Source: a bacterium (GTDB lineage: Bacteria; UBP15; UBA6099; JAJRTR01). Taken from it: DNA of 57,205 nucleotides. The notes beneath the pieces were generated by a model. That model saw only the letters and a list, made by a program, of their open reading frames with translations, did not search any database and had not been told where the DNA came from. The stretch spans positions 1 through 57,205 of the forward strand of contig JAJRTR010000165.1 in assembly GCA_024278215.1 (NCBI GenBank), given 5' to 3'. Shown here in pieces: positions 1,459 to 50,049 of this stretch; position 1 is the stretch's first letter; every line of letters starts with the position of its first letter. The position numbers and the translations under genes were made by a program.

Positions 1459-1636
1459 GAGCCAATTGTAAAATTCTGATTCTGCTGCGGTCGGCTGCTA
1501 TTGTCCATAGCTGCGTTGTCGGCGCGAAATCGTCCTCGACGTACTCTGCAAGTACGCCTGCGAGGATTTTGCACTTCCGCCTTGCTCTGAACAATTTCGC
1601 TCGACCTCGCTACGAACATAATTTTGCAATTGGCTC
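1459..1636 (+). mobile_element. MITE family A, copy 1 (178 bp)
   Basis: TIRs GAGCCAATTGtAAAATT / AATTTTGCAATTGGCTC; flanks ATCC/ATCT (3 of 4 matching). Confidence 0.9.
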
Positions 1637-1743
1637 ATCTGTTCACAGGAGCTTGCTTCGGGTGGGTGATCGAATACCAGCAAAGTACGTTCCCTCACCA
1701 CTCACTTGCCGCGCCTTGTATTACAGGCATTCACACGATTTTT

Positions 1744-1772
1744 TATCCGCATTGGTGAAATATGGGGGGCTA
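1744..1772. repeat. 29-bp palindrome family D; its end provides the TAG stop of the GT-C gene
   Basis: tatccgcattggtgaaatatggggggcta resembles the copies at 25158, 29861 and 32488. Confidence 0.7.
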
Positions 1773-3779
1773 AAGGGGCTGATCATCTCCATACTGTGCG
1801 AGAAAATCCACACATATTGACAGATAATCTTCGGGTAGCGAGCCGTCATCAATCAGTTCGGTAAATATTCTTTTTGTCCATTTTTCTCTGCCCAATTTTG
1901 CATGACAGAAGCCTATATAGAACTTAATTAACGGGTTGTCCGGATATCGAAAATTAAATTTTTTGACAAGAGTAAGCGCATCCTTGTACTTTTTGTTCTT
2001 GATCAGGGCCACACATTCTCTGATAGTGTTCCTGACTAATATTTCATTCATAAAATCTTCGTTGTTGAAGACATCTTCAAGAGAGAATACGCGAATCCGT
2101 CGGTCACGCTCCGATGGATTTGCCCTGAAGTTGTTCCACTTCGACAGATTTACTTTTTCATTGAACTGCTCTCCGGGCCACAGGTATTCCACTTCCCAGA
2201 AAAGGGGAAGAAACGTCACGCATGGATCTTCCACTGTGAATACCGGTTCCACATATTTCTGTATAAGTTCTATTGTTTCATCTATGAAAAACAATGGGAA
2301 GTGCTCGTGATGTTCTATAACGAGAAACCTGTAATTATATTTTGTATATGCGTTGGCAATATTTTTAAAAAGGCAAGGTTGAATTGCAAGGATATCTTGC
2401 CTGCTGTACAAAGATGTGAATGGAAAAGAAGTGCACAAAAACCCGTCAGTGCCCCTTGTCCGCAGATATTCAGCAGTACGGCTTATTCCGGACACAAGAC
2501 TGGTAGTTCGCAATGAATACCTTATATTTCTTGCAAGAATCCATAATAAAGCCACAACAGAAACGAACAATGGTAATTGCCCGAGAGCAACAGCGGCAAA
2601 AATCACTATCGACGGGAAAAATACAAGTATTCCGCGTGTTGCTTTCCAGGGAATGATTGTCATAAATCCCATGAAGACAAGTCCCTGTACTCCAAGGTAT
2701 ATATCAATCGGCGCGCCGCGAACGAGAAGAAACACCAGTCCGCCCGCAGCGGCGATAGTGAACGTCGGCCCCTCAGTATTCATAAACAGCATGGGGTAGA
2801 AACCGAACCGGTGTGAGGCTGGGATCTTCACGCCGGTGTCACCGGTTCTGCTGAACATATCGGCCAACCTTCTGACATTGAAGGCTATCAGGGTCACGGC
2901 TTTCTGTGAATGAGGAATTATCCCGCTTTCGGGAAATAAAAAAGCGCAGATAATAAACGGCAGGTCGCTCACCAGGATGCAGAGCATCAACATGCCGAGA
3001 ACAATCCCGATGCCTGCGGAGGTAAGACCCGGAGTTATAGTCCCGCCCGACGCAAACGCAAAGGCTGCTTCGCTAAGTATTATCAAGCCCGGCAGGAATC
3101 CGGCCCAGAAAGGATGGAACAATATTATTCCGGCGGCGAAAAAACCATATCCAGCAAGCAGGAGAAACGATGTCGGCGTGAACATAAAACCGGGGCCGCT
3201 GTGAATCAGTGCCGCCTTATGTGCTATCGAGCACAGGAGGAGTAGCTGGAAGCAAAAAGCCATGCCGGATTCGGGACCGCCGGACCGCGAATGAAGCACG
3301 TGAAGTCCGCTCACGGCCAGCATCGCCGCAGCTATCAGCCCAACTTTTTCATCGAATGCAACCGTACATGTAAAATATGCGATTGCAGGTGTCAGGCTTC
3401 CCATGATAAGAGAGGGCAATGCGATAGCTGTGTCCCTTTTCAGCCCCGACTTCAGCGCTGCCGTCAGTGCGTAAATATGCCACGCTTTGTAATACGCATA
3501 ATGTGTCGCCGGGGACGAATAATACTCTTTTTCAAGGGCTGTTCTTTCTTCTGCGTCTCTGCAGCGCCGCGTTTTCAGAAGTTCTTTCCAGTGCTTCCGC
3601 ACAAAAGCGAAGAGGTGGCGCACGGTCAGCGTTTCGCGATAGTATGCCGCCTCGTCGTACAGGAATATCCCTTTCTTGCCGAAATTCCTGACACGAAGCA
3701 GAAAACCCGCCGCTACGATTCCGATCATGATATAGATCGAATAGTTTTCAATGAAAGTCATTATCTGTTCCGTGCCCAT
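1770..3779 (-). CDS. GT-C fold membrane glycosyltransferase (ArnT/PMT, GT39/GT83-like) with a C-terminal TPR-like segment
   Basis: YDEAAY motif after TM1, many TM helices, LHVLHSRSGGPE segment, C-terminal helical repeat. Confidence 0.7.
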   Translation of the reverse strand: MGTEQIMTFIENYSIYIMIGIVAAGFLLRVRNFGKKGIFLYDEAAYYRETLTVRHLFAFVRKHWKELLKTRRCRDAEERTALEKEYYSSPATHYAYYKAWHIYALTAALKSGLKRDTAIALPSLIMGSLTPAIAYFTCTVAFDEKVGLIAAAMLAVSGLHVLHSRSGGPESGMAFCFQLLLLCSIAHKAALIHSGPGFMFTPTSFLLLAGYGFFAAGIILFHPFWAGFLPGLIILSEAAFAFASGGTITPGLTSAGIGIVLGMLMLCILVSDLPFIICAFLFPESGIIPHSQKAVTLIAFNVRRLADMFSRTGDTGVKIPASHRFGFYPMLFMNTEGPTFTIAAAGGLVFLLVRGAPIDIYLGVQGLVFMGFMTIIPWKATRGILVFFPSIVIFAAVALGQLPLFVSVVALLWILARNIRYSLRTTSLVSGISRTAEYLRTRGTDGFLCTSFPFTSLYSRQDILAIQPCLFKNIANAYTKYNYRFLVIEHHEHFPLFFIDETIELIQKYVEPVFTVEDPCVTFLPLFWEVEYLWPGEQFNEKVNLSKWNNFRANPSERDRRIRVFSLEDVFNNEDFMNEILVRNTIRECVALIKNKKYKDALTLVKKFNFRYPDNPLIKFYIGFCHAKLGREKWTKRIFTELIDDGSLPEDYLSICVDFLAQYGDDQPL

Positions 3780-3812
3780 ATTGTTGTTTTTTTGTATGAA
3801 TGCCCGATCCGC

Positions 3813-5377: not shown

Positions 5378-5451
5378 CTTTGGCGGGGTTCCTCTATTGT
5401 TTTACTCCTTGTTGCATTCCGTCTTGTTCGTTGTTCCCGCCGATGTCGGAG

Positions 5452-6480: not shown

Positions 6481-6510
6481 ACTTTACTTTCGCGTGTTGT
6501 AATAACGGCT

Positions 6511-7482
6511 TCAATCCAGGTTTATGCGGTATTTTATAAAGTATGCCTGCTTATCCTGCGACTCGAAATACGTCCGCATGATCAGTTCGGCGAGCAGGCC
6601 CATCATAATAAACTGGAAACCCAGGATAGCAAGGAAAACAGCGAGCAGTATCTTCGGATTATTATGCACCGGAAAGCCGAGAATATAACGGTCGTAAAGA
6701 GAGAAGGCTCCGAAAAACACTCCCAGCAGTCCAAGCAATCCACCGACAGAACCGAAAAGGTAGGCCGGTTTTGCAATGAAACTGCCCATGAATTTTACAG
6801 TGAAGAGGTCGAGAATAACCTTGAAGATTCTCGTGAGGCCGTAATTGGATTTCCCTGCCGTCCTCGGCCTGTGGTTCACCGGTATTTCTATTATTTCGGC
6901 CCCTACCTGCTGGGCATAAAGCGGAATGAAACGGTGCATCTCCCCATACAGCCGCACATTTCCGAGCACTTCCCTTCGGTACGCCTTCAGCGAACAGCCA
7001 TAATCGTGCAGATGAAGTCCGCCGATAACCGATATCATCCAGTTTGCGAAAAAAGAAGGCAGTTTCTTGCTCAGAAACGGGTCCTTCCTGTCCTTTCGCC
7101 AACCGCTCACCACGTCATAGCCTTCGTCTATCAGGTCGAGCAACCGCTTGATATCCGCCGGGTCGTTCTGGAGATCGGTGTCGATAGTAATCAGCACAGC
7201 GCCGGTCGCATGATTGATCGCCGCCGACACAGCCGCCGTCTGTCCGAAATTACGCGTGAATGAAATTACCTTAACCCTTTCATCTTTTTCAGCCAGGCGC
7301 GTCAGTATCTCACGGCTGCTGTCCCTGCTGCCGTCGTCGACATAAACAATCTCGAAAGAACGGTCGAGTTTTTCCAGTTCCTCAAACAGTTCGGCATGGA
7401 AACGCTCCAGGTTCTCAGCCTCGTTGTAAACAGGGCCGAGTATCGAAATATCCAACTGTTTTTTCCCTTCGGAACTTTCCAT
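6511..7482 (-). CDS. GT2 polyprenol-phosphate glycosyltransferase (ArnC/DPM1-like)
   Basis: PVYNEAEN, VDDGSRD, RNFGQTAA, IDTDLQNDP, GEMHRFIP, two C-terminal TM helices. Confidence 0.9.
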   Translation of the reverse strand: MESSEGKKQLDISILGPVYNEAENLERFHAELFEELEKLDRSFEIVYVDDGSRDSSREILTRLAEKDERVKVISFTRNFGQTAAVSAAINHATGAVLITIDTDLQNDPADIKRLLDLIDEGYDVVSGWRKDRKDPFLSKKLPSFFANWMISVIGGLHLHDYGCSLKAYRREVLGNVRLYGEMHRFIPLYAQQVGAEIIEIPVNHRPRTAGKSNYGLTRIFKVILDLFTVKFMGSFIAKPAYLFGSVGGLLGLLGVFFGAFSLYDRYILGFPVHNNPKILLAVFLAILGFQFIMMGLLAELIMRTYFESQDKQAYFIKYRINLD

Positions 7483-7661
7483 AAGTGTCCAATCCGGCAG
7501 CCGACAAAAAAAACACATTATCATTAGATTATGTCGAGTACAGTATATATCACAACCGCGTTCGTCTACAATCGACGCGTAGAAAAAAGGAAATAAATAA
7601 CAGGACGACAGACATCCGGATTATTGACACACATTATCGCAAAATATAATATTGTGTAAAG

Positions 7662-7839
7662 AAGCCAATTGCAAAATTCTGATTCTGCTGCGGTCGGCTA
7701 CTATTGTCCATAGCGGCGTTGTCGGCGTGAAATCGTCCTCGACATACTCTACAAGTACGTCTGCGAGGATTTTACACCTACGCCTTGCTCTGAACAATTC
7801 CGCTCGACCTCGCTACGAACATAATTTTGCAATTGGCTC
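7662..7839 (+). mobile_element. MITE family A, copy 2 (178 bp)
   Basis: Same TIRs as copy 1; 4-bp direct repeat AAAG on both sides. Confidence 0.9.
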
Positions 7840-7923
7840 AAAGTAAAGAATCTGAACAACGCAACCCGGCACCGTATATTGTATGCACGAAAAAAAAGTC
7901 CCGAACTGTCGAGGTTATTACTC

Positions 7924-9090
7924 ATGCAGAATGCTAAAGAAATACAAACCGCAAGCCGTTTCCTGCGGAGGGCTCTGCTGCCTTGTTTTGTAGCCGCGCT
8001 GCTCCTCTTCAATGCCGCGAATGCACGGCCCAGACCCCCGAAAGGCAGAAAACCGCCGCCCGGAAACTCGACGAACACATCGCAACACTCGAGCCGGTCG
8101 AGCCGGAACAACAACCCTTTCCTGCTGTCGGAAGACGGTCATATAGCAGACGTCATCGGATTTCAGAATATAGGTCGCTCCGACACAACATTCGATGCCG
8201 TTTTCTATCTACCGACCTCTTACGCCGACCTCCAGACTGTCACAGATCAACAGGTCTACTTCTATCCGGCGAATGCCGACACCGCCGAGATACTTACCGA
8301 TACGCTGGGAGCGTATATGCTTCATCTGAAATACACGGGACTGCAACCCCGGTCACGTATAGTTGTCTATTACACGGCAAACATCCCCGAGGAGCAACCC
8401 CGGCGCCCGGTGACAGGCTGGAAAAACATTCCGGTACCCGAAAGCGCCGCCGCATACCCTGTGTCCGCCGCCATGTTCCTGAAGTCCGGCAGAGACCTTG
8501 AAACACATACCCCACGGGTGCGGAAATACACAAAAAAAATCATACCCGCGAAAGACGGCCTGACATACGGCGAGGCAGCTTGCGCCGCTGTGAAGGATAT
8601 CGATTCTTTCCCATTCGGCAACGACAACAACAGCAGCCGCAACACACGTTTCCCCCCGGACTACATGCGAAACCCCGCAGAGGTTCTCGCCTCCCACAAA
8701 TGCGTATGTGTCGAGTGCGCTCGACTGGCATGTGCGGTTCTTCGCAACACCAACATCCCCTGTCGCACAGCTACAGGGTTCTTCGGCGGAAAACCCTGGG
8801 ACCACACATGGATACAAATCTTTGTCCGGGACATCGGCTGGGTCGACGTCGATCCCCAGCAGGGATACTGTCCTGACGGCCTGCTCAGTGAGGAGTACAA
8901 AGGCAAGTACGACCTTTACGAATTGCTCGATCCGGACCAGAACGAGACCTATGAGATCCAATATACAACCGATCCCCCCGTTCCCATGCGCATCATGTCT
9001 CAAAATATTAACGATTTCGGCGATTTCATCGAGCAGGGTACCACCCGCAAAAAGGAATCCGTCACCTGGGGCGAAATAACCGTTGAATGA
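7924..9090 (+). CDS. Secreted transglutaminase-like (Cys-His-Asp) protein
   Basis: Signal peptide ending ANA, Pro-rich linker, CVECARLACAVLR..NIPCR..TG, HTWIQ, GWVDVDP. Confidence 0.8.
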   Translation: MQNAKEIQTASRFLRRALLPCFVAALLLFNAANARPRPPKGRKPPPGNSTNTSQHSSRSSRNNNPFLLSEDGHIADVIGFQNIGRSDTTFDAVFYLPTSYADLQTVTDQQVYFYPANADTAEILTDTLGAYMLHLKYTGLQPRSRIVVYYTANIPEEQPRRPVTGWKNIPVPESAAAYPVSAAMFLKSGRDLETHTPRVRKYTKKIIPAKDGLTYGEAACAAVKDIDSFPFGNDNNSSRNTRFPPDYMRNPAEVLASHKCVCVECARLACAVLRNTNIPCRTATGFFGGKPWDHTWIQIFVRDIGWVDVDPQQGYCPDGLLSEEYKGKYDLYELLDPDQNETYEIQYTTDPPVPMRIMSQNINDFGDFIEQGTTRKKESVTWGEITVE

Positions 9091-20194: not shown

Positions 20195-20344
20195 GAGCCA
20201 ATGCAAAATTATGTTCGTAGCGAGGTCAAACGAAATTTTTCAGAAGCAAGGCGGAGGTGCAAAATCCCCGCAGGCGTACTCGCCGAGTACGTTGAGGATG
20301 ATTTTGTGCCGACAACGCAGCTATGGACAATTGCAGCCGACCGC
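20195..20344 (-). mobile_element. MITE family A, copy 3 (reverse orientation, one end truncated)
   Basis: GAGCCAATGCAAAATTATGTTCG...GCAGCCGACCGC is the reverse complement of family A. Confidence 0.85.
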
Positions 20345-20445
20345 GCCCTCAAAACGTCGATACAAAGTTGACACGACACCATGTTGTTTCTCGATTTCAC
20401 ATACGCAATTACTATTGATAACCGCTATAGCGGTTACTGAAAAAG

Positions 20446-22392: not shown

Positions 22393-22451
22393 GAGCCGAT
22401 TGCAAAATTCCGATTCGGCTGCGGTCGGCTGCGGTCGGTGGCAATCGGCTT
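22393..22451 (+). mobile_element. MITE family A, copy 4 (internally deleted, 59 bp)
   Basis: GAGCCGATTGCAAAATT...GCAATCGGCTT; direct repeat GAAG on both sides. Confidence 0.75.
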
Positions 22452-22505: not shown

Positions 22506-23324
22506 ATGACTGAACAAAGTAATATGAAACCGGAAGGCGGAAAAATGCTTACACGCGATCTTGAGATACTGGGCAGGCGCCGATGCCGCCTCTGCTGGAT
22601 AAAAGAAGACGAACAGACCGCCGAAAAGCTCGAGGAAGAATCCCGCAAACATCCCGAAGACGGCGAACTGCACATCAAACTTGCCTGCGCATATCTCAAG
22701 CTATGCAAATACGACGAGTCGATCAAAGCTTCAAAGACAGCTATAGAAAACGGTATGGACAATGATCGCGGGTTCGCGCAACTGGGGCGCGCACTCATAG
22801 AATCCGGCCGGCTCGAAGAAGGCCGCAAAGCCAGTCTCCATGCTTTTAAAATCAATTCCGACAATATCACCGCGCTGCTGAATCTCGCCGTTTACAATTC
22901 GCTTAAAGGTGATTATCAGACAGCCATGGACTATTTCGATATTTCCGAGAAGGTCGCCCCGTACTACCACCGCCTCTACGGTGAGCGGGGGCTGCACTAC
23001 GCCCGTGTCGGCATGATTAACGAAGCGCTTGAAGACCTCAAGACAGCGATAAAGTATGACCCATGCAATCACACACATTATCACAACATGAGCGACATAT
23101 ATATGAAGAACGGCATGATGGACGACGCCGAGAAGACACTTCTCAAGTCAATCGACAATCGACCCGGATGTGCCGAATCATATCACAGCCTCGCTCAGAT
23201 ATGTGCCGAAAAAGATAATCTTGAAGAGGCTGTGAAAAATATCGACAGGGCCGTCAGGCTTCATCCTGAAAATGAAGAATTCCGGGAATACCGCAGGCAA
23301 CTCAAAGAACAAAAACAATCATGA
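22506..23324 (+). CDS. Tetratricopeptide repeat protein
   Basis: About seven TPR-like units (for example EALEDLKTAIKYDP, EAVKNIDRAVRLHPEN). Confidence 0.85.
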   Translation: MTEQSNMKPEGGKMLTRDLEILGRRRCRLCWIKEDEQTAEKLEEESRKHPEDGELHIKLACAYLKLCKYDESIKASKTAIENGMDNDRGFAQLGRALIESGRLEEGRKASLHAFKINSDNITALLNLAVYNSLKGDYQTAMDYFDISEKVAPYYHRLYGERGLHYARVGMINEALEDLKTAIKYDPCNHTHYHNMSDIYMKNGMMDDAEKTLLKSIDNRPGCAESYHSLAQICAEKDNLEEAVKNIDRAVRLHPENEEFREYRRQLKEQKQS

Positions 23325-23544
23325 ACCGATTGCGGCCGACCGCAGACAAACAGAGTTTTGAAAGTGTCGCATAAGCAACACAGAGTGTCGGTTCCGGTTG
23401 GCTATTTGAATGTTTTTTACCTGTTACACTATGAAAAAAAGACATATCAAATATAATATTGGTTGCTGTATAAAGAGAATTATTTAAGCGGAAAACCCCT
23501 CAACCTGGAAGGGATGACTGCTGTATTGGTATATAAAATACATT

Positions 23545-27981: not shown

Positions 27982-28374
27982 TCAATCCACGCCGATGCCG
28001 GACAACTCTTCCTCTATCCTGCTAATCAGTGCATTGGGCGCTATCGGTTTTGAAAAGATCGAACTTTCGGGTATGATGTCCGCGGAATCGCCAAGTGTAA
28101 CTTTTATCTGCGATTTCGTAAGTGAAGACAGGAATATCACAGGAATATCCGCCGTTTCCTCGTTTTCTCTCATTTCCAGATAAATCTCGAGTCCGCTTTT
28201 GCCCGGCAGATAAAGATCAAGCACTACAAGATCAGGCCGCAGTTCCATTATCTTTTCCAGACCACGGTCTCCGTCCTCGACCAGCCCGGCTTCATAACCT
28301 TTACTCTCGAGCAGTATCTTCAGCGTCTCCGATATCGCTTCGTCGTCTTCTATGATCAACACTTTTATTGACAT
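27982..28374 (-). CDS. Single-domain response regulator (receiver)
   Basis: VLIIEDD, PDLVVLDLYLPGKSG, IPVIFLS, KP. Confidence 0.9.
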   Translation of the reverse strand: MSIKVLIIEDDEAISETLKILLESKGYEAGLVEDGDRGLEKIMELRPDLVVLDLYLPGKSGLEIYLEMRENEETADIPVIFLSSLTKSQIKVTLGDSADIIPESSIFSKPIAPNALISRIEEELSGIGVD

Positions 28375-28419
28375 CTTATGCTCCTGTATTCATATATACC
28401 GCGTAATGTTTATATACCC

Positions 28420-28598
28420 GAGCCAATTGCAAAATTCTGATTCGGCTACGGTCGGCTGCAATTGTCAACAGCTGCGTTGTCGGCACAAAATCATCCTCGA
28501 CGTACTCTACAAGTACGCCTGCGGGGATTTTGCGCCTCCGCCTTGCTTCCGACCGATTTAGCTCGATCTCGCTTCGAACATAATTTTGCAACGGGCTC
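28420..28598 (+). mobile_element. MITE family A, copy 5
   Basis: Family A TIRs; direct repeat ACCC on both sides. Confidence 0.9.
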
Positions 28599-28654
28599 AC
28601 CCGCTTTTGCCGGTTGTCACTCACTCGGCACCGGGATATATCGCCCGATACTGC

Positions 28655-29434
28655 TCACGATGCCGGTCCCGTCGCCGGTATTATCACTTCCACCCGTGTA
28701 CCCTTACCTGCTTCGCTTTCAACAATGATTTTCCCATTAACTTTCTCTACTATTTTTTTCACAATCGGCATACCAAGCCCGGTGCCGGTTTTTGCATGTT
28801 TTTTCGCATTGTCGGCCCGTGTGAATTCGTCGAATATTCCCGAAACTGCCTCTTCCGGTATCCCGATCCCTTCATCTTCAACTGTGAAAACCACTTTCCC
28901 TCCGCTTGCTTTTTTCAAACCGGCATGAACGGTGGAACCTTCATAACTGTATTTCACAGCATTTTCCACCAGGTTGATAAAAACGTGTTCCAGAGCCCGT
29001 TCGGAAATCGCCGCCACGGCGGACGCGTCCGTTTCTGTTTGTATTTCGATGTTCTTTTCCGCTGCCGACGGCGACACTGTTTCGACACATTTTACAAGCA
29101 CTGCCACCGCTTCGCATGTGCCCCCGACAAAATCTTCGCCGCCGCCTGAATACAACTGGCCGAGTACGATCATTTCATTGATCGTATCGAGCATTTCATC
29201 GCCGCGCGCAAGCGCTTTCCCGAGCAGTCGCCGTACCACCTCCGGATCGTCCGTTATCCCCTCGACTATTCCTTTAATCACTGTCTGTAGCGAAACAAGC
29301 GGTGCGCGCAACTGGTGCGACATCAACATGAAATGTCCTGTCTGCTTCTCTTTTTCCGCATCCTTAACCCTTAACTGTTCTTCCAGCTCGGCGACTCTCT
29401 TTTTCAGCCCCTCATTTTCCGGCAAAGCATTCAT
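28655..29434 (-). CDS. Histidine kinase (HisKA plus HATPase) without a sensor domain
   Basis: SHQLRAPL H-box, NLVENAVKYS, VEDEGIGI, GTGLGMPIV. Confidence 0.9.
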   Translation of the reverse strand: MNALPENEGLKKRVAELEEQLRVKDAEKEKQTGHFMLMSHQLRAPLVSLQTVIKGIVEGITDDPEVVRRLLGKALARGDEMLDTINEMIVLGQLYSGGGEDFVGGTCEAVAVLVKCVETVSPSAAEKNIEIQTETDASAVAAISERALEHVFINLVENAVKYSYEGSTVHAGLKKASGGKVVFTVEDEGIGIPEEAVSGIFDEFTRADNAKKHAKTGTGLGMPIVKKIVEKVNGKIIVESEAGKGTRVEVIIPATGPAS

Positions 29435-29633
29435 AATTCACACATAATCCGACAATCCCGAAACGACGAAAATCTTAAGAAGCGATAAAAATAAAATTCC
29501 GGTCTACCGGGTTTCTGGTTGCAGTATACAAAACACTATATAATACGAACTGCAAATACGATTACCATACCTCATTATATGATCTAACGGTAATGTGTCA
29601 ATATTGCATACTTTTTGTGTTTCATTCACTACT

Positions 29634-29811
29634 GAGCCAATTGCAAAATTCTGATTCGGCGGCGGTCGGCTGCAATTGTCCATTGCTGCGTTGTCGACAG
29701 AAAATCATCCTCAACGTACTCGGCGAGTACGCCTGCGGGGATTTTGCACCTACGCCTTGCTTCTGAACAATTTCGTTCGACCTCGCTTCGAACATAATTT
29801 TGCAATTGGCC
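29634..29811 (+). mobile_element. MITE family A, copy 6
   Basis: Family A TIRs; direct repeat TACT on both sides. Confidence 0.9.
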
Positions 29812-29860
29812 TACTAAATTACTTTGTTGATTTACAATTTATATTATGTTATTTTATAGC

Positions 29861-29891
29861 TAACCCGCATGTTTCACCACAATGCGGACTG
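29861..29891. repeat. Palindrome family D (reverse orientation, variant)
   Basis: TAACCCGCATGTTTCACCACAATGCGGACTG. Confidence 0.6.
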
Positions 29892-29957
29892 CAACGGTGT
29901 AATGGTAACAAAGAGTGTGCAGACAGGGGTAAGTTGTTCTCCACGGACAATTGAGCG

Positions 29958-30947
29958 ATGCTGAGAAGACAGGCAGGCACGATAATTCTTCTTGTCGCCG
30001 CATTCATGGCGGCGGCGCTTGTGCGCAACCAGGTTACTGTGGTTACAAAGCAATGGAAGCAGGAAGAAAACAGGAAAGTCGACGGCACATTTCAGCCGAC
30101 CCGCGCTGCATCTCTGGGCATGTTCGAGTTCATCGCGGCAGGTATGAAACCGCTTGTGGCGGACTTCTACTGGATAAAAGCCACGACGCTAAACGCGGAC
30201 AAGATATTCGAGATGCAGAAAGAAATGGCAGTCAAGAGGGTTTCCACACTCACGATGCAGGAAGAAGTGAACAGGTCGCAGCAGGATGATCGTGATCTCT
30301 ACGATTTGCTTAGTATGGCATGCAGACTCGATCCGCATTTTGTATATGCTTATTATTACGGCTCACAGCTTCTCTCATGGGATGCACAATACACACTCGC
30401 GACCTCCCTGCTCGAGCGCGGCATGAGGAACAACCCGGATTCGGCCGTGCTCGCCTCGGCAATGTCGTTCATTCAGTATTATTTTCTCGACGACTGGGAA
30501 AAGGGAGCGGAATACGCGCAGTTGTCTTATGAGATTTCCGGCAAGTATGCCGCGACTCCAAAAACGGTGGCAAACCTGTATGCCGCGGGCCGTAACTATG
30601 ATCTCGCGCTGACGTTTCTTGCGGATATTCATGAAACAACCAGCGACCCCGACACCAGAGAGCAGATAGACGAACAGATAAGATACCTTCTTGTCGAAAA
30701 GCATATCGAAACCCTCCAGAACGGTGTCGATTCGTTCAGGAGCAAGTTCGGCAGACTGCCCGCCGACCTGGACGTGCTTGTAAGAGCGGGTATAATTTCA
30801 AAGATGCCGGAAGATCCGTTCGGTGGTAAATATGTGCTCAAAAAAAACGGCAAAGTAGAGAACGAACCACGCATGAGAATGGACCATTACGCGAAGATGC
30901 GCAAGTACCAGAACTCGAAACCCAGGGGCGGGAGGCAGCGCCTGTGA
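29958..30947 (+). CDS. PilG/XapA-like TPR-type accessory protein of a type IV pilus-associated ABC system
   Basis: N-terminal TM, LVADFYWIK, RLDPHFVYAY, C-terminal GRLPADL..LV..G.I...PEDPFGGKY; precedes the ABC ATPase and permease. Confidence 0.6.
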   Translation: MLRRQAGTIILLVAAFMAAALVRNQVTVVTKQWKQEENRKVDGTFQPTRAASLGMFEFIAAGMKPLVADFYWIKATTLNADKIFEMQKEMAVKRVSTLTMQEEVNRSQQDDRDLYDLLSMACRLDPHFVYAYYYGSQLLSWDAQYTLATSLLERGMRNNPDSAVLASAMSFIQYYFLDDWEKGAEYAQLSYEISGKYAATPKTVANLYAAGRNYDLALTFLADIHETTSDPDTREQIDEQIRYLLVEKHIETLQNGVDSFRSKFGRLPADLDVLVRAGIISKMPEDPFGGKYVLKKNGKVENEPRMRMDHYAKMRKYQNSKPRGGRQRL

Positions 30948-35571: not shown

Positions 35572-35690
35572 TGCCGGAGGGTGTTCGAAAATCTCTTTTC
35601 CCGCGACAACATCTTGTCGCATCAAGGCGGGATAAGGCCCTGCAATGAATTGCTCCGGATGAATTACGAGGAATACTTTCCGGTTAAACT

Positions 35691-36602
35691 ATGGAAAACA
35701 ACACGAAAAAACAGGTATTCACGCCGGAAGTGATGGAGAAGATAGCGCGTCTGGAAGTGCGCGCGCGTATGGTCGTGGAAGGTCTTCTCGATGGTTTCCA
35801 CAGGAGCCCTGCGCGCGGCTTCAACGTCGAATTTCTCGAGCACAGGCAGTATTATCCCGGCGACGACATCAGGCATATCGACTGGAAAGTCTACGCGCGC
35901 AGCGGTCGCCACGTGATAAAACAATACGAAGTGGAAACGAATCTTCAGGCGCGTCTGCTGCTCGATTCGAGCGCTTCCATGGACTATGGCGCGGGCACAG
36001 GCAGCGGCAGCAAACTCGAATATTGCGGTGTGCTGTCCGCGGCGCTGGCATACCTTATGCTGAAACAGGGAGACGCTGTAGGACTGACAATAGCGGACGG
36101 CGGTGCCGGGAAACATGTCGAGCCTGTGGCGGCTCGCGGGCATCTCTACAGGATACTCGGCGCAATCGAAACAACGGACGCGGGCGGTGCGGCGGGCATA
36201 GCCGAGCAATTGCGCCGCCTCGGCGAAACCCTCAAGCGAAGGTGTATCCTGCTGGTTTTCTCGGACCTGCTCGAGGAACCGGAGCCGATCATGGAACAAC
36301 TGAAATGGATTCGCGGGCGCGGAAACGAGATTGCGCTGTTTCACGTGCTGCACGAAGATGAAGCAGGGTTTCCATTTACACGCGCGGCGCGTTTTGTCGA
36401 TCCGGAAAGCGCACTGAAAATGATTGCCGATCCGACGGCTGTAAAAAGCGCCTATATGAAGAACCTCCATGACTTCATTGATTCGTATGGCGAGTTCTGC
36501 ACGCGAGTGGACATAGATTTTGTTTCGACCGTCACGTCGACATCGCCAGAAGAAACGATATTGCGGTACTTGAAAAAGAGAGACCGCAGAAAACGGAAAT
36601 GA
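35691..36602 (+). CDS. DUF58 (MoxR-associated vWA-like) protein
   Basis: G.HRSP.RG..VEF.EHRQY.PGDDIRHIDWKVYAR, LLDSSASM, FSDL. Confidence 0.92.
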   Translation: MENNTKKQVFTPEVMEKIARLEVRARMVVEGLLDGFHRSPARGFNVEFLEHRQYYPGDDIRHIDWKVYARSGRHVIKQYEVETNLQARLLLDSSASMDYGAGTGSGSKLEYCGVLSAALAYLMLKQGDAVGLTIADGGAGKHVEPVAARGHLYRILGAIETTDAGGAAGIAEQLRRLGETLKRRCILLVFSDLLEEPEPIMEQLKWIRGRGNEIALFHVLHEDEAGFPFTRAARFVDPESALKMIADPTAVKSAYMKNLHDFIDSYGEFCTRVDIDFVSTVTSTSPEETILRYLKKRDRRKRK

Positions 36603-36617
36603 CCGGCAATTACTGAT

Positions 36618-38753
36618 ATGAATTTCCTGCAACCGATAATGTTGTACGGTGTGGCGCTGGTGGCGGTGCCGCTGATATTGCATCTGCTGTCGCGGCGGCG
36701 CGTGCGTGAAGTGGTGTTCCCGGCGATGATGTTTCTGCTCGGGACGCGGCGGCGCAGCATGCGTATGCTGACTCTCAAGCAATGGCTTGTGCTGCTGTGC
36801 CGGATGGCGGCGGTCGGCTGCATCGCGGCGGTTGCGGCGTTGCCGGTTCTGAGACATTTCGACATCGGCATCGCAGGCACACGAACGCCGGTTGCTGTGC
36901 ATATCCTTATCGATAACACGCCGAGTATGGGATGGCGCAAGGCCGGTGTGTCTTTTCTGGACAGGGCGCGTGCGGCGGCGGAGAAGATCGTGGGCGCGGC
37001 TGCCGATGACGATTATATCACTGTCGAACCGGTGTGCGGCACAGAGATATCGGCTTCGGGGTCGGCGGGCAGGGCTGATCTGCTGCGCCGCCTCAGCTCT
37101 ATAAGTATCGAATCGTGCGATGCTGACATATCGCACGAAATGAAGCTCGCAACGGCGCGGTTGAACAAGGAAAACGTGGGCCGCAGGAACCTTGTCGTGC
37201 TCTCCGATTTTCAGAAACATTCTTTCAGGTCGGAAATGCCGGTGCCGGATGCGGGCGACGGTATAGTCGTTTCGGCTGTTGATTTCGCAGGTGGAACACA
37301 AAGAAAAAATGTGCGTATTAAAAAGGTGGATACGCCGCTGTACCCGCTGAAGGGCGAAGACATTCCTATATGTTATGAACTCACTGCCGACGGCAGTTAC
37401 GATTCCGATATTGTCGTGTCGCTGTTTATAGAAGGCACCAAGAGGGGAGAGCATGAAACTTCACTCGACGCCTCCGGCAATGCGGCCGACTGCTTCACGA
37501 TGACATTCGGCGAACTCGGGTCGGTATGGGGAAAGGTCGTTATAAGCGGCGACGAAATGCCTGAAGACAACAGCCGCTATTTCATCATCGACGTGAACAA
37601 AGAAATAAACGTGCTGGTGCTTGCGCCCGGTGAAGATGTAAGGGACGCGGGGGCGGGCGCTTTTTATGTGGTGCGTGCCCTGAGGGCCGCTTCGGGCGCG
37701 GGACCCGGCGAGAGCTCGATCCTCATCAATACAGTATCTCCCGGCAGACTTGATAAAACATCATTCGACGGTGTCGGTGCTGTGATGGTGCCCGCCGTAA
37801 CTGAACTTACGGAAAATGACGTGTTGCTGCTCGGCAACTATATCGCGTCCGGTGGCGGCGTTTTTGTAAATACCGAGGGTGCGGGAACGGGCGTGGAACT
37901 TGTAGCAAAGGCGTTTTTCGCGGACGGCATCGATGTGTCGACCGCGAGGGGCGCACCGGGGGGTGATAGCAATACGGAAAGCGCCGCTTCAGACTTTTTC
38001 ACAATCGGCGGCATGTCGCCCGGACATCCTCTTTTTACTTTGCGCGCGGGGAAGCTGCTCATCGAAAAGACGGACGACATAAGATTCAACGCGCCCGCCG
38101 CAATAGAGGTCACAAGCCCGGAAACGCATGTGGTTGCCACATTTTCAAATGGCGCTCCCTTTATAATCGAGCGAAAGATCGGAAAGGGAAGAGCTGTCCT
38201 GGCGGCTTCTTCTTTCAGACCGACAAGCACGAGTTTTCCCCTGGCTCCCTCCTTTGTGCCGTTCACTCTCCAACTGGCGAGATATTTATCAAACGGTTTC
38301 ACAGATGAGGCGGACAGTTTCGTTGCAGGCAGCCAGATCTCGATAAGCATCGGCGGCGCAGGCTCGGACGGGCGGCTGACTTTGAAAAATATTGAAACAG
38401 GCGAAGAGACGGGAATGAAAATGTTGAGTGCGGGACCGCCCGCCGAATACGTTGTCGACGGCGAGCCCGCGCCCGGCGCGTATTCGATAAGCAACGGCTC
38501 CGGCGAAAAACTTGATTATATTACCGTAAACAATGATCCCGGCGAAGGCGACCTGACGCCGCTGGCCGCGGCCGCATGGTCGAATATTCTCGATAATAAA
38601 ACGACCGCACGACTGGACGCTTCGAGATTTACGGACTTTGAAAGATTGCAGGCGCGGTTATACAAAGGCAGGTCCGCCGCGGCATGGTTCCCATTCCTGT
38701 TCCTGGGAATAATTTTTCTGATGGCCGAGAACGCGCTTGCAAACAGGGGATAA
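36618..38753 (+). CDS. BatA N-terminal and vWA-domain membrane protein
   Basis: MNFLQP...PLILHLL, LIDNTPSM, LSDFQ, DNSRY, C-terminal TM. Confidence 0.85.
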   Translation: MNFLQPIMLYGVALVAVPLILHLLSRRRVREVVFPAMMFLLGTRRRSMRMLTLKQWLVLLCRMAAVGCIAAVAALPVLRHFDIGIAGTRTPVAVHILIDNTPSMGWRKAGVSFLDRARAAAEKIVGAAADDDYITVEPVCGTEISASGSAGRADLLRRLSSISIESCDADISHEMKLATARLNKENVGRRNLVVLSDFQKHSFRSEMPVPDAGDGIVVSAVDFAGGTQRKNVRIKKVDTPLYPLKGEDIPICYELTADGSYDSDIVVSLFIEGTKRGEHETSLDASGNAADCFTMTFGELGSVWGKVVISGDEMPEDNSRYFIIDVNKEINVLVLAPGEDVRDAGAGAFYVVRALRAASGAGPGESSILINTVSPGRLDKTSFDGVGAVMVPAVTELTENDVLLLGNYIASGGGVFVNTEGAGTGVELVAKAFFADGIDVSTARGAPGGDSNTESAASDFFTIGGMSPGHPLFTLRAGKLLIEKTDDIRFNAPAAIEVTSPETHVVATFSNGAPFIIERKIGKGRAVLAASSFRPTSTSFPLAPSFVPFTLQLARYLSNGFTDEADSFVAGSQISISIGGAGSDGRLTLKNIETGEETGMKMLSAGPPAEYVVDGEPAPGAYSISNGSGEKLDYITVNNDPGEGDLTPLAAAAWSNILDNKTTARLDASRFTDFERLQARLYKGRSAAAWFPFLFLGIIFLMAENALANRG

Positions 38754-44751: not shown

Positions 44752-45746
44752 TTATCCCGGAATCAGTCCCATCAGGCGCTTCGCCTCGAAAACCGTATCA
44801 GCCGCAATCTCTCTCGCCCGCTCGGCACCTTCCTTCAGAACTTTATCGACAACGTCCGGATTTTTCGCAAGTTCGTCGCGTTTCTCGCGGATCGGGTCGA
44901 GGACCTTCATAAGGTTCTCGAAAAGAATTTTCTTGCAGTCGATGCAGCCCATGGAAGCGGTGGTGCAGGCTTCTGTTATCTCGTCGAGTTGCGCCTGAGG
45001 CGAGACAAGTTTGTGGTAGGCGAAAATATTGCAGATGTCTGGATTTCCAGGGTCTTTGAGCCTCTGGCGGGCCTCGTCGGTTTTCGCGGGGCGGAGTTTT
45101 CCCCAGATCGAGTCCGGCGGCTCGGTGACACCGATGAAATTGCCGACTGACTTGCTCATCTTTTTTTCGCCGTCGAGTCCCATGACCCGCGCTCCGCGAC
45201 CGATGAGCGTTTTCGGCTCATTGAAAAGTCGCCGAATCGCGTGTTGAATCTGCGGGCGACCTCGCGTGTAAACTCGAGATGCTGCTCCTGGTCTTCACCA
45301 ACGGGAACGGCAGCGGCCCTGTAGATCAATATGTCGGCCGCCATGAGTATCGGGTAATTCAGGAGACCGGCGTTGATATTCTCCTGATGCTGCCGCGACT
45401 TGTCTTTGAACTGTGTCATCCTGCTCAATTCGCCCATCGGCGTGACGCAGTTCAGGAGCCAGCACAGTTCCGTGTGCTCGGGCACATGGCTCTGGATAAA
45501 AATGGTGCATCGCCCGGGGTCGAGCCCGGCGGCCATGTTGTCCATAACCGCCTCGCGAATCCGGGTCTGCATGATCGCGGGATCATATTCGATCGTAATA
45601 GCATGATAGTCGACGATCGTGAAGAAACAATCATATTCGTCGATCAGGCGCACCCAGTTTTCGATAGCGCCGAAATAATTGCCGATATGAATAGTGCCGC
45701 TGGGCTGGATGCCGCTTAATATTCTTGGTTTCCGGTTATCACTCAT
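44752..45746 (-). CDS. trpS: Tryptophanyl-tRNA synthetase, split by a 1-nt frameshift near 45224-45227
   Basis: SGIQPSG.IHIGNY, YPILMAADI and VPVGEDQ are in one frame; GLDGEKKMSKS...PGNPDIC is in another. Confidence 0.93.
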
Positions 45747-45809
45747 GAAAAAGTTCTTTCTGTGGGGGGAATACGACAATATTGAAATAATTATAAGAGC
45801 CGGTGCGGG

Positions 45810-46546: not shown

Positions 46547-46724
46547 GAGCCAAGTGAAAAATTCTGATTCTGCTGCGGTCGGCTGCTATTGTCCATAGCT
46601 GTGTTGTCGGCATAAAATCGTCCTCGACATACTCTACAAGTACGCCTGCGAGGATTTTACACCTCCGCCTTGCTATGAACAATTTCGCTCGACCTCGTTT
46701 CGAACATAATTTTGCAATTGGCTC
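46547..46724 (+). mobile_element. MITE family A, copy 7 (178 bp)
   Basis: Family A TIRs; direct repeat ATTA on both sides. Confidence 0.9.
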
Positions 46725-46861
46725 ATTAAAACACAGCAGAGCTTGATGGTTGGTATGGCTGGTTGCCTGGTTCCACGGAAACATCTCGATGTGTAGGATA
46801 GGCACTGAGTAAAAAAGAGCTTTTGCAAAAGGCATTTTGAATATTTATTTTCAAATTACCG

Positions 46862-46889
46862 TTGACAAACCGCGAAAAGCATGTAAAAT
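46862..46889 (+). promoter_or_regulatory. Sigma70-like promoter upstream of the flagellin gene
   Basis: TTGACA-16 nt-TAAAAT. Confidence 0.45.
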
Positions 46890-47130
46890 GAGATTTACAG
46901 GTAGAAGTTTGGTATTTATCATGATGCGGATTGAAACACCAAAGTCAGCTTAGCCGGCAGGCCAAGGAGATCAATCCGGGGTTTATCTCCATCAAGAATT
47001 CTCTCGAAAAAAACGATGATGGTTGTTGTGTGTTGATTGCTTTCCTCTAGGGTAATTGACATACATGAAACATTATTAAACGACGCACAATCATACATCA
47101 TCACACAAAGCCTACATAGCCGTAATAAAT

Positions 47131-49773
47131 ATGTTGATTTCACCTTATGCTTCGCAATTGCAGTGTTTGAGCAATATATACCGGAGCGGAAATAACCTTT
47201 CGAAATCAATTGAAAGGTTATCGACCGGCCTGAGGATCAATACGAGCAAGGATGATCCGACAGGCATAGGTATCAGCCAGACACTGAACGCACAACGTAC
47301 CGGTGCCGCGGTTGCGCTTCATAACGCGCAGGAGGCGCAGGATTTGCTGAATTCCGCTATGGCGGGGTTGAACGAAATAGAAACCCTGGTGATAAAGGGA
47401 AGAGACGTAGTCGTAAGATCATATAACGCCGCGACAATGTCCGTCGCGGACAGGAACTCGATGCAGGCGGAACTCGACGGAATCCTCAAGGGGATTGACG
47501 ACATAGCCGGCAGCACAACATTTAACGGAAAAACCATCCTGGACGGTGGAGATTCCAACAGGACAAAACTGGACAGCCAGGCCGACTGGCAGGCGACGCC
47601 GTTTGCAGATGTTCCCGCAGGCTCGATAGACCTGTTGTCAAGTCCCGGAGATATAAAACTGGATACGGTCGACTGGGTGAGCAGTATCGGAAGCCACTAC
47701 ACACAGGCCGCCGGCGGCGACAATTATATAACAGTCTATCTCGGAGGCGTTTCGCGAGACGGGGTTACAGGATTGCAGACGGCGGATGTATATGTCGAGG
47801 TCAACAGCACGACAAACAGGACTTTCCAGGGCGGCATCACATTCGACGCCTCGACGACAATCAACTCGGTGAGCGCAACGCCGGGGGTGACGCAGGCGGG
47901 AAATACCGTCAACTACAATTTCACCGCCGGCCCGGGCGGAAAACAGACGTTCATTGTTAATATCACCGCACCGGGAAACGCCGACTGGGACCTCTCGATG
48001 AACAGTCCGTCAAATAATCCCGGTGTGTCTCTTTACTTTGACAATACAAAAATATATGGTCCCAAACTCGGCGCGTGGAGTGTTCCGAACAACTATTTCA
48101 CGACAATCGAACCGACCGGCGATTACTATTCGCAGGCAATAGATATGGAAGCGGCAGGCGGCGAAGCGTCTCTTACATGGCAGTCGTCCCAGCCCGGCGG
48201 CACAACACTGAATGTGCGAGTCGAGGAAAGCGCGGACGGGGTCGGTGGCTGGACAGCGCTACCGCTTGTCGAAAGCGGAGAAACATTCACTTATAATCAG
48301 CAATACCTGCGTGCAGTTGTCGAAATGACAAGCGCCGGCATTGCCTTCGGTTCGCCAACGGTGGACTGGGTGGAATTCAATAAAGTCGAGCCGGTGAAAA
48401 TCCAGGCGGGCCCCGACAACAATGAAAGCCAGCGTATCAGCATGACAGCTATAGACGCGCGCGCTTCCGCGCTCGGCATCGCCGGACTAAATATCTTATC
48501 GAATACAAACATAGCCGCCCAGTATGACACGTCGGCGGAGATGCTCGCCGGGTTCACCAATTTAAACAATATCGATATACTCAGCGACCCGGGATATTTT
48601 CAACTTGAATCACCTGTTGCAAACTCGGCCACTATCGACGGAACGGGCCAGAACTGGTTTACCGTCGATTATGTCGTCACAGGTGTGAACACGGACGGCA
48701 CTTATGATATCGAAGTTAACTTGAACACTTATGGCGAGTCGCTCGGCGGAGACGCCGGGCTGTACTACTTCGGGAACTTCCGATTCATGGACGGAGAGGG
48801 CGGTCCGATCGCAATAGATTCAGTCACCCCCATCTCACACGAAGGCAGTGGAAGCTGGGCGGACTCTTATGTCGCGAACGGACCGGTGGGCGCATACACA
48901 GATGTGGACTTCGAGCACAGAACAGCCGGGCTGACCGACGGACTGAAGTTTAATCTCAGTTCGGTCGATCCTGACATCAGATGGGTCAGCGACTTTGATG
49001 TAAGGGGAATAAACGCAGGTGTGCCTTCGGCGAATTACTGGTATGTCGATATATACAACGGCAACACTCAGATAGGGTTCGAACAGGGGTCCGGGGCCGG
49101 GAACATCTCTGTCGACAGGCGGCTCGCGGAGTTCAATATGCCCGGTTCTTTCGAGACGACGGCCATCAAGTTCGGCGAAGATGCGGACGGTTTCCTGACA
49201 GGAGCGACAAATAACCCCGGCGATAGTGTACAGTATCGGATCGAAGAAAGCATGACGGGAGTGGGCGGCTGGGTGAACACTCCGAACCTGCTGGACTACG
49301 GTGACGGAAGCACAACATTTAAAACAGACACGGGCTACGACTACATCCGTGTTCTCGTCCAGGTAAACGGCACGGCCGAAGCTTTCGCACCCGGGGATTT
49401 AGTTACTCCCATGTCGTATACGGAATCGAACTCTCCGCGCATAGACAGCCTGATTATCGGCAGGAACAGCGTTGCGCTGGTGCTCTTTGACAACGCGCTC
49501 GAAAAACTTGCCGATAAGAAACAATCCATCGCAACGGCATATCAGGAAATAAGCAGGCAGGTCGACACACTCAATCAGCAGGTAATATCGGAATCGGCCG
49601 CATTGTCGAGGATCAAAGACGCTGATATGGCGCAGGAGGCGGTTGCGCTGACAAAATCACAGTTGCTGAAATCCGCCGCAGTCGCTTCGCTTCATGATTT
49701 CGGCAACAACAATGCCGGAAAAGCGATGTCGTTGCTGCGGGTGCTCGGCCGCCCCAGCCCGTTCCTGATGTAA
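47131..49773 (+). CDS. fliC: Large (880 aa) flagellin with two big inserts
   Basis: N-terminal SIERLSTGLRIN...DDP.G and TTFNGKTILDG; C-terminal SRIKDADMAQEA..LTKSQ. Confidence 0.88.
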   Translation: MLISPYASQLQCLSNIYRSGNNLSKSIERLSTGLRINTSKDDPTGIGISQTLNAQRTGAAVALHNAQEAQDLLNSAMAGLNEIETLVIKGRDVVVRSYNAATMSVADRNSMQAELDGILKGIDDIAGSTTFNGKTILDGGDSNRTKLDSQADWQATPFADVPAGSIDLLSSPGDIKLDTVDWVSSIGSHYTQAAGGDNYITVYLGGVSRDGVTGLQTADVYVEVNSTTNRTFQGGITFDASTTINSVSATPGVTQAGNTVNYNFTAGPGGKQTFIVNITAPGNADWDLSMNSPSNNPGVSLYFDNTKIYGPKLGAWSVPNNYFTTIEPTGDYYSQAIDMEAAGGEASLTWQSSQPGGTTLNVRVEESADGVGGWTALPLVESGETFTYNQQYLRAVVEMTSAGIAFGSPTVDWVEFNKVEPVKIQAGPDNNESQRISMTAIDARASALGIAGLNILSNTNIAAQYDTSAEMLAGFTNLNNIDILSDPGYFQLESPVANSATIDGTGQNWFTVDYVVTGVNTDGTYDIEVNLNTYGESLGGDAGLYYFGNFRFMDGEGGPIAIDSVTPISHEGSGSWADSYVANGPVGAYTDVDFEHRTAGLTDGLKFNLSSVDPDIRWVSDFDVRGINAGVPSANYWYVDIYNGNTQIGFEQGSGAGNISVDRRLAEFNMPGSFETTAIKFGEDADGFLTGATNNPGDSVQYRIEESMTGVGGWVNTPNLLDYGDGSTTFKTDTGYDYIRVLVQVNGTAEAFAPGDLVTPMSYTESNSPRIDSLIIGRNSVALVLFDNALEKLADKKQSIATAYQEISRQVDTLNQQVISESAALSRIKDADMAQEAVALTKSQLLKSAAVASLHDFGNNNAGKAMSLLRVLGRPSPFLM

Positions 49774-49788
49774 TTCTTCAATATATCC

Positions 49789-49821
49789 CTAACCCGGCAA
49801 AGCCGGAACCAAACAGGCCGC
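49789..49821 (+). repeat. 33-bp repeat family C
   Basis: CTAACCCGGCAAAGCCGGAACCAAACAGGCCGC; 30 of 33 identical to 53974-54006, with a partial copy at 563. Confidence 0.7.
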
Positions 49822-49992
49822 ATTCTTGTGCTCAAACAAATGCGGTTTGAGCACAGCACACAGAGTTTCATCGTTCCAAAGGTCTACCTTGGAAACGACT
49901 GTAACTGGAAGCTCCAGCTTTCACCGATCTCTTTTCAGCATTTCTTTACCATCCTGCGTAGCATTTCAGTCGTAAGATACCGTATTATTATT

Positions 49993-50049
49993 GAGGCGAT
50001 TGAACAATTTCGTTCGGTCTCGCCTCGAACATAATTTTGCAATTGACTC
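49993..50049 (+). mobile_element. MITE family A, copy 8 (internally deleted, 57 bp)
   Basis: GAGGCGATTG fused to the right half, ending AATTTTGCAATTGACTC; direct repeat TATT on both sides. Confidence 0.75.

Follow-up and report, generated by a model that had tools for sequence, protein, structure and literature searches.

A family of 178-bp miniature inverted-repeat elements in a UBP15 bacterium, probably mobilised in trans by an IS1182-like transposase

The DNA considered here, called the window throughout, is the stretch of 57,205 base pairs (bp) at positions 1 to 57,205 of contig JAJRTR010000165.1, the full length of this contig, which comes from a bacterium of the UBP15 lineage. It is an ordinary stretch of bacterial chromosome, with genes for PdxS/PdxT, HolB, PSP1, glycosyltransferases, methyltransferases, FecR/TPR proteins, a DUF58-BatA set, a flagellin, a kinase-regulator pair, and an ABC transporter. 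Its lineage is poorly sampled (the closest HolB among 5.8 billion proteins searched is 68% identical, and the closest PdxS up to 83%). Nine copies of a small repeat, which is identified below as a MITE (miniature inverted-repeat transposable element), are dispersed between these genes. A repeat search detected one family of five long copies and two families of ends with six members each; an nhmmer profile derived from the five full-length copies was run alongside over the window and recovered these five, a truncated copy in reverse orientation, two mini copies, and a weak relic, as follows:

1459..1636, plus strand: full-length MITE of 178 bp, subfamily A; flanks ATCC/ATCT, three of four bases matching; E = 1.4e-64
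7662..7839, plus strand: full-length MITE of 178 bp, subfamily A; target duplication AAAG/AAAG; first base A, not G
20196..20347, minus strand: reversed truncated MITE copy; model positions 26-177 matched, positions 1-25 gone; E = 2.8e-48
22393..22451, plus strand: internally deleted mini copy of 59 bp; left 42 nucleotides plus a degenerate right end; target duplication GAAG/GAAG
23327..23367, minus strand: degenerate left-end fragment, a possible relic; weak match, E = 0.004
28420..28598, plus strand: full-length MITE of 179 bp, subfamily B; target duplication ACCC/ACCC
29634..29811, plus strand: full-length MITE, subfamily B; target duplication TACT/TACT if the end is 29811; right terminus GGCC, not GGCTC
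46547..46724, plus strand: full-length MITE of 178 bp, subfamily A; target duplication ATTA/ATTA
49993..50049, plus strand: internally deleted mini copy of 57 bp; model positions 130-178 preceded by about 10 nucleotides of the left end; target duplication TATT/TATT

The profile matches of the full copies extend over 1459-1636, 46547-46724, 7663-7839, 29634-29810, and 28420-28597 (E-values of 1e-61 to 1e-64), and beyond the nine copies all remaining matches in the window have E-values above 0.2. The matched parts of the two mini copies are a left-end piece at 22393-22434 (model 1-42, E = 6.9e-09) and a right-end piece at 50001-50048 (E = 2.5e-10), respectively; the copy at 20196 has lost one end repeat, and its remaining end repeat carries a 1-bp deletion. 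A first-pass annotation, made from the letters of the window, had proposed a family of about nine copies, and its five full, one reversed truncated, and two mini copies were all recovered by the profile. The reversed copy, which it had placed at 20195-20344, is confirmed with slightly different limits, while the fragment at about 23324-23370, which it had called a probable relic, matches only weakly.

Diagnostic positions divide the five full copies, together with the truncated one, into two subfamilies, one consisting of the copies at 1459, 7662, and 46547 (A) and the other of those at 28420, 29634, and 20196 (B). The mini copies differ from each other in structure, which would be consistent with full-length insertion sequences (IS) that inserted independently and decayed in place, instead of one small element that was amplified. 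We give almost no credence to this explanation, because the same colinear 178-bp interior is present in all five full copies and in the truncated one, and independent deletions would not yield it.

The ends of the family are formed by a 17-bp terminal inverted repeat, GAGCCAATTGCAAAATT, which with up to three mismatches is found 12 times in the window, against 0.32 matches expected from 100 shuffles of the window (the maximum in any shuffle was three). One or two mismatches are present in seven of the 12 end repeats. When the five full copies were aligned together with their flanks, the similarity stopped exactly at the element ends. Flanking 4-mers were scored with the element boundaries of the first-pass annotation, with which seven two-ended copies are assessable and the truncated copy and the relic are not. 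A perfect 4-bp flanking duplication is present in six of the seven (AAAG, GAAG, ACCC, TACT, ATTA, and TATT), and the seventh, at 1459, matches at three of four bases; the duplications are thus nearly intact, with one mismatch in 28 compared positions. As a four-of-four match at the same spacing arises by chance at 230 of 56995 window positions (0.004 per copy), six perfect duplications in seven copies are not a product of chance. Both the shared 17-bp repeat and the copy-specific duplications had been reported in the first pass, and both stand.

All nine copies are located in the intergenic fraction, which makes up 11.4% of the window in a gene map based on open reading frames (ORFs) and Pfam families, in agreement with the earlier claim that every copy is intergenic. 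Their combined length of 1200 bp corresponds to 2.1% of the window, or 18% of the intergenic DNA in it. The flanks of the insertions (50 bp on each side) have 24-49% GC, compared with 52% in the window. The earlier remark that most copies share one orientation is right as a count (seven of nine), but the count does not amount to an orientation bias (binomial p = 0.18, not significant). The occupied spacers are divergent in four cases (7662, 22393, 29634, and 46547), convergent in two (20196 and 49993), and tandem in three (1459, 23327, and 28420).

The longest open frame in the element is at most 59 codons, and no Pfam family was found in the ORFs running across the copies. In its size, terminal inverted repeats, duplications, and dispersal, the family agrees with a bacterial MITE, and this assignment is supported: the element is small and noncoding, it has 17-bp terminal inverted repeats and copy-specific 4-bp duplications, and it is dispersed with unique flanks. 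As a mobile element it is of an ordinary kind, and it does not represent a new mechanism.

The full element is an imperfect palindrome from end to end, in which the left half shares about 66% identity with the reverse-complemented right half (60-63 of 92-95 aligned columns). This inverted similarity is retained beyond the end repeats, as the alignment of the two halves without them scores 8-9 against -10 to -12 ± 4 for shuffles, and none of 200 shuffles reaches the score of the element. Folded as single-stranded DNA, the element forms a hairpin of -36.2 kcal/mol (z = -4.8), and none of 200 shuffles is equally stable. Such a stable hairpin, the similarity of its halves, and the large share of intergenic DNA that the copies occupy could all be expected of a structured repeat selected by the host, such as a terminator, an mRNA stabiliser, a protein-binding site, or a small RNA, that was spread by recombination in the manner of REP/BIME or ERIC sequences. 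However, the copy-specific 4-bp duplications are the signature of integration at a staggered cut, the ends are identical to those of a transposase-carrying IS (see below), and divergent, convergent, and tandem spacers are occupied alike, with no fixed relation of the copies to genes. In addition, the RNAalifold consensus of six copies predicts 64 pairs, and only one of them shows a compensatory change on both sides. No Rfam family matched over the element at the gathering threshold, and none matched region 28380-28640 even at E-values up to 1. The reading of the element as an RNA family was rejected on these two grounds, and a host-selected repeat is considered very improbable as a whole; we see no evidence of selection on the structure of the element itself.

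A consensus scan of region 28300-30000 for promoters and terminators gave two promoter-like sites (2.8 expected) and three terminator-like sites (1.7 expected), with just weak sites within the copies, and thus lends no support to a promoter or terminator in the element. Small intergenic repeats that form hairpins and occur at high density are also known as Correia/NEMIS elements in Neisseria and as REP and ERIC sequences, which the window family resembles in these respects. In Correia elements, end repeats of about 26 bp are combined with a TA duplication; REP elements lack a duplication and rely on a tyrosine-type transposase. Unlike the Correia/NEMIS and REP elements, as these are generally described, the window family has a 4-bp duplication of variable sequence. 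A REP/BIME-type palindrome in the usual sense of that class was likewise rejected for an element of 178 bp with copy-specific 4-bp duplications.

The exact 17-mer was searched for in a collection of genome contigs, and at least 70 loci were listed. Since about 70 matches are expected by chance across the whole collection, as calculated from its size, single isolated matches mean little. At locus L018, in a Gammaproteobacteria metagenome-assembled genome (MAG), the exact 17-mer is present in inverted orientation at 2001-2017 and 3428-3444, and the two repeats bound an IS of 1444 bp (2001-3444) with an ORF of 376 residues that encodes a DDE transposase. A transposase between two exact copies of the 17-bp repeat, of the kind postulated in the first pass, therefore exists in another organism. 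Its domains are DUF772 (residues 64-128), DDE_Tnp_1 (226-365), and DDE_Tnp_1_6 (322-365) according to Pfam, and the best NCBIfam model is IS1182 (95.7 bits). At another locus, L061, two end repeats lie 2015 bp apart, and they were taken as two separate ends because no transposase-like ORF is present between them.

A tblastn search of plasmids with the L018 transposase gave 17 records, nine of which are 48-55% identical to the protein over 98-99% of its length. Of these nine, six are annotated as "IS1182 family transposase" (H1-H6), two as "IS1182-like element ISUnCu17 family transposase" (H7 and H8), and one, from an uncultured bacterium, as "tnpA: transposase" (H9); the L018 protein is 55% identical to an "IS1182 family transposase" of a Comamonas plasmid and 48% identical to an ISUnCu17-family one. 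The ends of the plasmid elements follow the pattern GAG(C/G)C..TTGCAAAA. They are GAGCCTCTTGCAAAAGG and GAGCTTCTTGCAAAACT in L072, GAGGCACTTGCAAAACT and GAAGAACTTGCAAAATT in L073 (an Acinetobacter plasmid), and GAGGCTCTTGCGAAATT in L071 (Comamonas pBHB), where one end was found. These ends differ from the 17-mer of the window at 3-4 of 17 bases, with GAG and TTGCAAAA retained. The ISUnCu17-like copy L072, which has GAGCC..TTGCAAAA ends, is flanked by ATGA on both sides. The window family is thus like L018 (17 of 17 bases) and the ISUnCu17-related IS (L071, L072, and L073) in its end pattern and, at L072, in the 4-bp duplication, and these IS encode DDE transposases with DUF772 and DDE_Tnp_1.

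The motifs HLD, DAAY, and ER.N..LKD are conserved in an alignment of four full transposases and the fragment at L001, and they constitute a putative DDE triad. Transposase fragments beside an exact end repeat were found at L050 and L066 (both in the MAG of L018), at L069 (another Gammaproteobacteria MAG), and at L001 (a Myxococcaceae MAG, 56% identity). The fragments begin about 190-208 bp from the end repeat in L001 and L069, compared with 188 bp in L018. At L050 and L066, the end repeat stands directly beside the N-terminal 174 residues of the transposase alone, about 90% identical to L018. These two loci resemble IS copies that were shortened by internal deletion to an intermediate size, a possible step from IS to MITE.

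The same end repeat also bounds other small elements. The listed loci were searched for a second, inverted end repeat with up to four mismatches at a span of 30-2300 bp, and at least 30 candidate pairs were obtained, 28 of them with assessable flanks. The flanks match at four of four bases in nine pairs, at three in five, at two in four, at one in six, and at none in four, and about 0.1 perfect matches would be expected by chance among the 28. Short pairs, which are hairpins of 49-211 bp, come from at least 12 other genomes in six phyla among the matches listed:

Short-pair loci, by end-repeat pairing: L005, L010-L012, L022, L025, L027, L031, L034, L037-L039, L045-L048, L052-L054, L058, L063, L065, L067

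A Simkaniaceae MAG has at least eight loci with a 163-bp element, and a Sphaerochaetaceae MAG has at least five loci with short pairs; the further MAGs are two of Lentisphaera, one each of Victivallales, Victivallaceae, Victivallis, and Bryobacterales, two of Acidobacteriota, and one each of Alphaproteobacteria and Bacteriovoracaceae. They represent Chlamydiota, Lentisphaerota, Spirochaetota, Acidobacteriota, and Bdellovibrionota, together with the Alphaproteobacteria MAG, which we take to belong to Pseudomonadota as the sixth phylum. In their interiors, these elements have no relation to the window element and mostly none to each other, and none of the loci listed contains the interior of the window element (nhmmer, E < 1e-3) or its flanks. 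Very small pairs with perfect duplications, such as those of 49 bp at L054 and 74 bp at L025, resemble the two mini copies of the window. It is conceivable, although we stop just short of favouring it, that one IS1182-like clade recognising the near-invariant GAGCCAATTGCAAAATT end repeatedly seeded unrelated 49-211 bp hairpin MITEs in distant bacteria, and that the window element is one branch of an undescribed superfamily that extends over many phyla and is defined by its ends alone.

Taken together, we consider the window repeats to be a family of MITEs mobilised in trans, the enzyme being a DDE transposase that is IS1182-like and related to ISUnCu17 and cuts AT-rich DNA with a 4-bp stagger, and we assign a probability of roughly 85% to this reading. 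The transposase would be encoded outside the contig of the window, and the partner would be present, now or formerly, in the source genome. It would bind both end repeats and cut at the GAG termini, and integration would take place at a 4-bp staggered cut, preferably in AT-rich intergenic DNA such as that seen in the flanks. Repair of the stagger would then leave the copy-specific 4-bp duplications that are observed. Judging from their junctions, the two copies of 57-59 bp are probably internal-deletion derivatives that kept their duplications, and the hairpin shape most likely goes back to an inverted duplication of a single IS end, rather than to a host function.

Several of our results count against mobilisation by such a partner. 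Two of the six perfect duplications are less secure than the others: TACT/TACT at the copy at 29634 depends on the boundary, as a right end at 29811 gives four of four bases and one at 29812 gives none, and TATT/TATT at the copy at 49993 sits within a TATTATTATT run, a simple repeat that makes a chance match easier. Only one of three assessable full-length IS copies has a perfect duplication, because the flanks of L018 (AAGG/CCGG) and L073 (TATA/TTAA) each match at two of four bases, and 14 of the 28 assessable pairs among the listed loci match at no more than two. L018 and the ISUnCu17-like IS carry a transposase gene and are autonomous at a length of 1.4-1.5 kb, unlike the 178-bp element, and the sequence that they and the other listed loci have in common with it is limited to the terminal 17-19 bases (blastn-short), with no subterminal tie to a particular parent. 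The IS1182 score of the L018 transposase is below the curated cut-off of 270 (the protein has 376 residues and the model 488 positions), and IS5_4 is the second-ranked model with 75.1 bits (cut-off 140). Furthermore, the pairwise identity of the five full copies is 84.4-93.3%, and the window contains no transposase. The latter had also been noted in the first pass and was confirmed here, since none of the 46 + 15 ORFs scanned matched a Pfam transposase family, and the best tblastn match of the L018 transposase to the window has an E-value of 1.1.

The IS5_4 match, which covers residues 56-359 of the L018 transposase, raises the question of whether the partner belongs instead to the IS5 family (IS5 group). 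The IS5 group makes 4-bp duplications as well, and the DUF772 and DDE_Tnp_1 domains do not discriminate between the two because they are common to the IS5 and IS1182 families. The other IS5 models score lower, with 48.6 bits for IS5_3 (cut-off 110) and 37.4 bits for IS5_2 (cut-off 140), so that all three IS5 models are below their NCBIfam cut-offs. An IS5-family partner is improbable in view of the higher score of the IS1182 model, the annotation of eight of the nine near-full plasmid matches as IS1182 family or IS1182-like, and the GAG..TTGCAAAA ends that they share. The first-pass annotation had left the choice between an IS1182- and an IS5-type partner open; such a partner is supported here, and the model ranking, the plasmid annotations, the ends, and the 4-bp duplication at L072 together indicate that it is probably IS1182-like.

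The divergence of the copies bears on another explanation, in which the family is a fossil of old transposition, its partner has been lost from the genome, and nothing moves today. It would account for the 84-93% identity of the full copies, the mismatches in seven of the 12 end repeats, the truncated, deleted, and relic copies, and the lack of a transposase on the 57-kb contig. On the other hand, the 4-bp duplications have remained nearly intact, and part of the divergence may predate insertion, because two subfamilies exist. The absence of a transposase from one contig would say little, as IS copies usually break metagenome assemblies. We regard a fossil family as rather unlikely, and mobilisation by an IS1182-like partner remains the preferred reading. 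Nevertheless, recent activity is not evident at this level of identity, and the description of the family as "proliferating" in the first pass is not supported as written, as the full copies are 84-93% identical and several copies are truncated or degenerate.

Copies outside the window were sought through protein collections, using as a proxy the 59-residue translation of one reverse frame that is open in several copies. A library of 1.84 billion representatives gave 11 matches, including eight small proteins of 55-82 residues with 69-87% identity; the long proteins P0128, P0129, and P0131 (34-39% identity over 17-29 residues) were dropped as low-complexity chance matches. A set of 5.8 billion proteins gave eight matches, two of them from the contig of the window and six from other contigs of 12.6-123 kb with NCBI as their source. 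In total, 10 distinct proteins outside the window carry the translated element at 69-88% identity and then diverge after the end repeat, and they represent different insertion sites, because the sequence beyond the end repeat differs. One of the matched proteins, P0127, has an internal deletion in the translated element. Since just two of the nine window copies yield such an ORF, the number of copies in public data is probably several-fold higher. The first-pass extrapolation to hundreds of copies in the genome is not supported as written, since the further copies that could be demonstrated are these 10 on other public contigs. No copy of the window element was found in the plasmid collection (blastn, distant mode).

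Related systems have been described in other prokaryotes. According to Kamoun et al. (2013, PMC3852290), Methanosarcina acetivorans has IS1182 MITEs with ISMac2 as their partner, one set being 160 bp long with 14 copies, an inverted repeat of 26, and a direct repeat of 4. The ISMac2 MITEs are like the window family in being noncoding elements of about 160-170 bp with an IS1182-family partner, in occurring in multiple copies (14 and 7), and, in one set, in the 4-bp direct repeat. They differ from it in their archaeal host, in their inverted repeats of 25-26 bp against 17 here, and in a partner known from the same genome, in a comparison of reported features rather than sequences (PMC3852290). 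ISPse1 of Paracoccus seriniphilus, an IS1182-family element captured on a trap plasmid, has inverted repeats of 16/16 and a direct repeat of 4, as stated in PMC3281130. The length of its duplication is that of the window MITE, while ISPse1 is autonomous with 1653 bp; this likeness concerns the duplication length and not the end sequences.

In a review of prokaryotic MITEs (PMC10969869), the Chunjie MITE from Geobacter uraniireducens is described as intergenic, 178-235 bp long, with conserved end and direct repeats and many partial copies, one of which lies in an operon. The copy at 28420, which separates a kinase gene from its regulator gene, is like the Chunjie operon copy, although Chunjie is a family unrelated to the window MITE. 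A term search of this 2024 review found none of "IS1182", "Lentisphaer", and "Chlamydia". In a text search of a literature library, neither a 14-base core of the end repeat nor the name ISUnCu17 was found.

The individual copies have varied neighbours. A TPP (thiamine pyrophosphate) riboswitch at 1321-1414 (minus strand, 68.8 bits) is located upstream of a gene of the ThiD2 family at 850-1353 (minus strand) according to Rfam and Pfam. The copy at 1459 is found upstream of the riboswitch, at a distance of 44 bp and at the expected position of the promoter, and 133 bp past the stop of the ORF 1770-3779 (minus strand). This riboswitch and a tRNA are the only Rfam matches in the window. The copy at 7662 lies between the divergent genes 6511-7524 (minus strand) and 7879-9090 (plus strand), the fragment at 23327 directly follows the stop of the ORF 22506-23324, and a histidine-kinase gene (28655-29434, minus strand) and a response-regulator gene (27982-28374, minus strand) are separated by a 280-bp spacer that contains the copy at 28420. 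Upstream of the histidine-kinase gene, a perfect sigma-70 consensus (TTGACA-16 nucleotides-TATAAT, 12 of 12 bases) is found at 29601-29574 (minus strand), 33 bp from the copy at 29634. The copy at 46547 is situated between a DUF2505 gene (minus strand) and the flagellin gene (plus strand), and the copy at 49993 is 11 bp from the stop of the ORF 50061-50912 (minus strand). The flagellin ORF (47131-49773, plus strand) is flanked by these two MITE copies; with 880 residues it is unusually long, and it has flagellin domains at both termini and a large middle part without a family.

Some further features of the window were observed. The gene of a class-I tRNA synthetase (W/Y type) at 44752-45779 (minus strand) is split into the overlapping ORFs 45156-45779 and 44752-45183, which match positions 3-177 and 192-291 of Pfam tRNA-synt_1b, and the single-frame translation stops after about 207 residues; this frameshift could be due to a pseudogene or to an assembly error. 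An ORF for a FitA-like ribbon-helix-helix antitoxin (53267-53521, plus strand) extends into the start of an ORF with a PIN domain (53518-53943), as is typical of a type II toxin-antitoxin pair. A DUF58/VWA ORF is followed by an ORF of 711 residues with a BatA N-terminal domain (35691-38753, plus strand), which together form an aerotolerance-type set, and an opposite-strand ORF of 596 residues without a family (35664-37454) is probably spurious.

As for the organism, the copies near regulatory DNA, i.e., the copy beside the TPP riboswitch, the one in the kinase-regulator spacer, and those in four divergent promoter regions, may alter the expression of the adjacent genes, judging from their positions. 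Spurious small ORFs derived from the copies are already present in public protein sets, and masking them would clean the annotation of this poorly sampled lineage. The identical 17-bp end on unrelated hairpins in six phyla is the one aspect that specialists might consider worth closer attention. If one IS1182-like clade did seed these elements, it would imply either an unusually strong conservation of end recognition by the transposase or a frequent transfer of the IS between phyla, and the shared 17-bp end would serve as a sequence handle for tracing that clade and its MITE offspring across bacteria.

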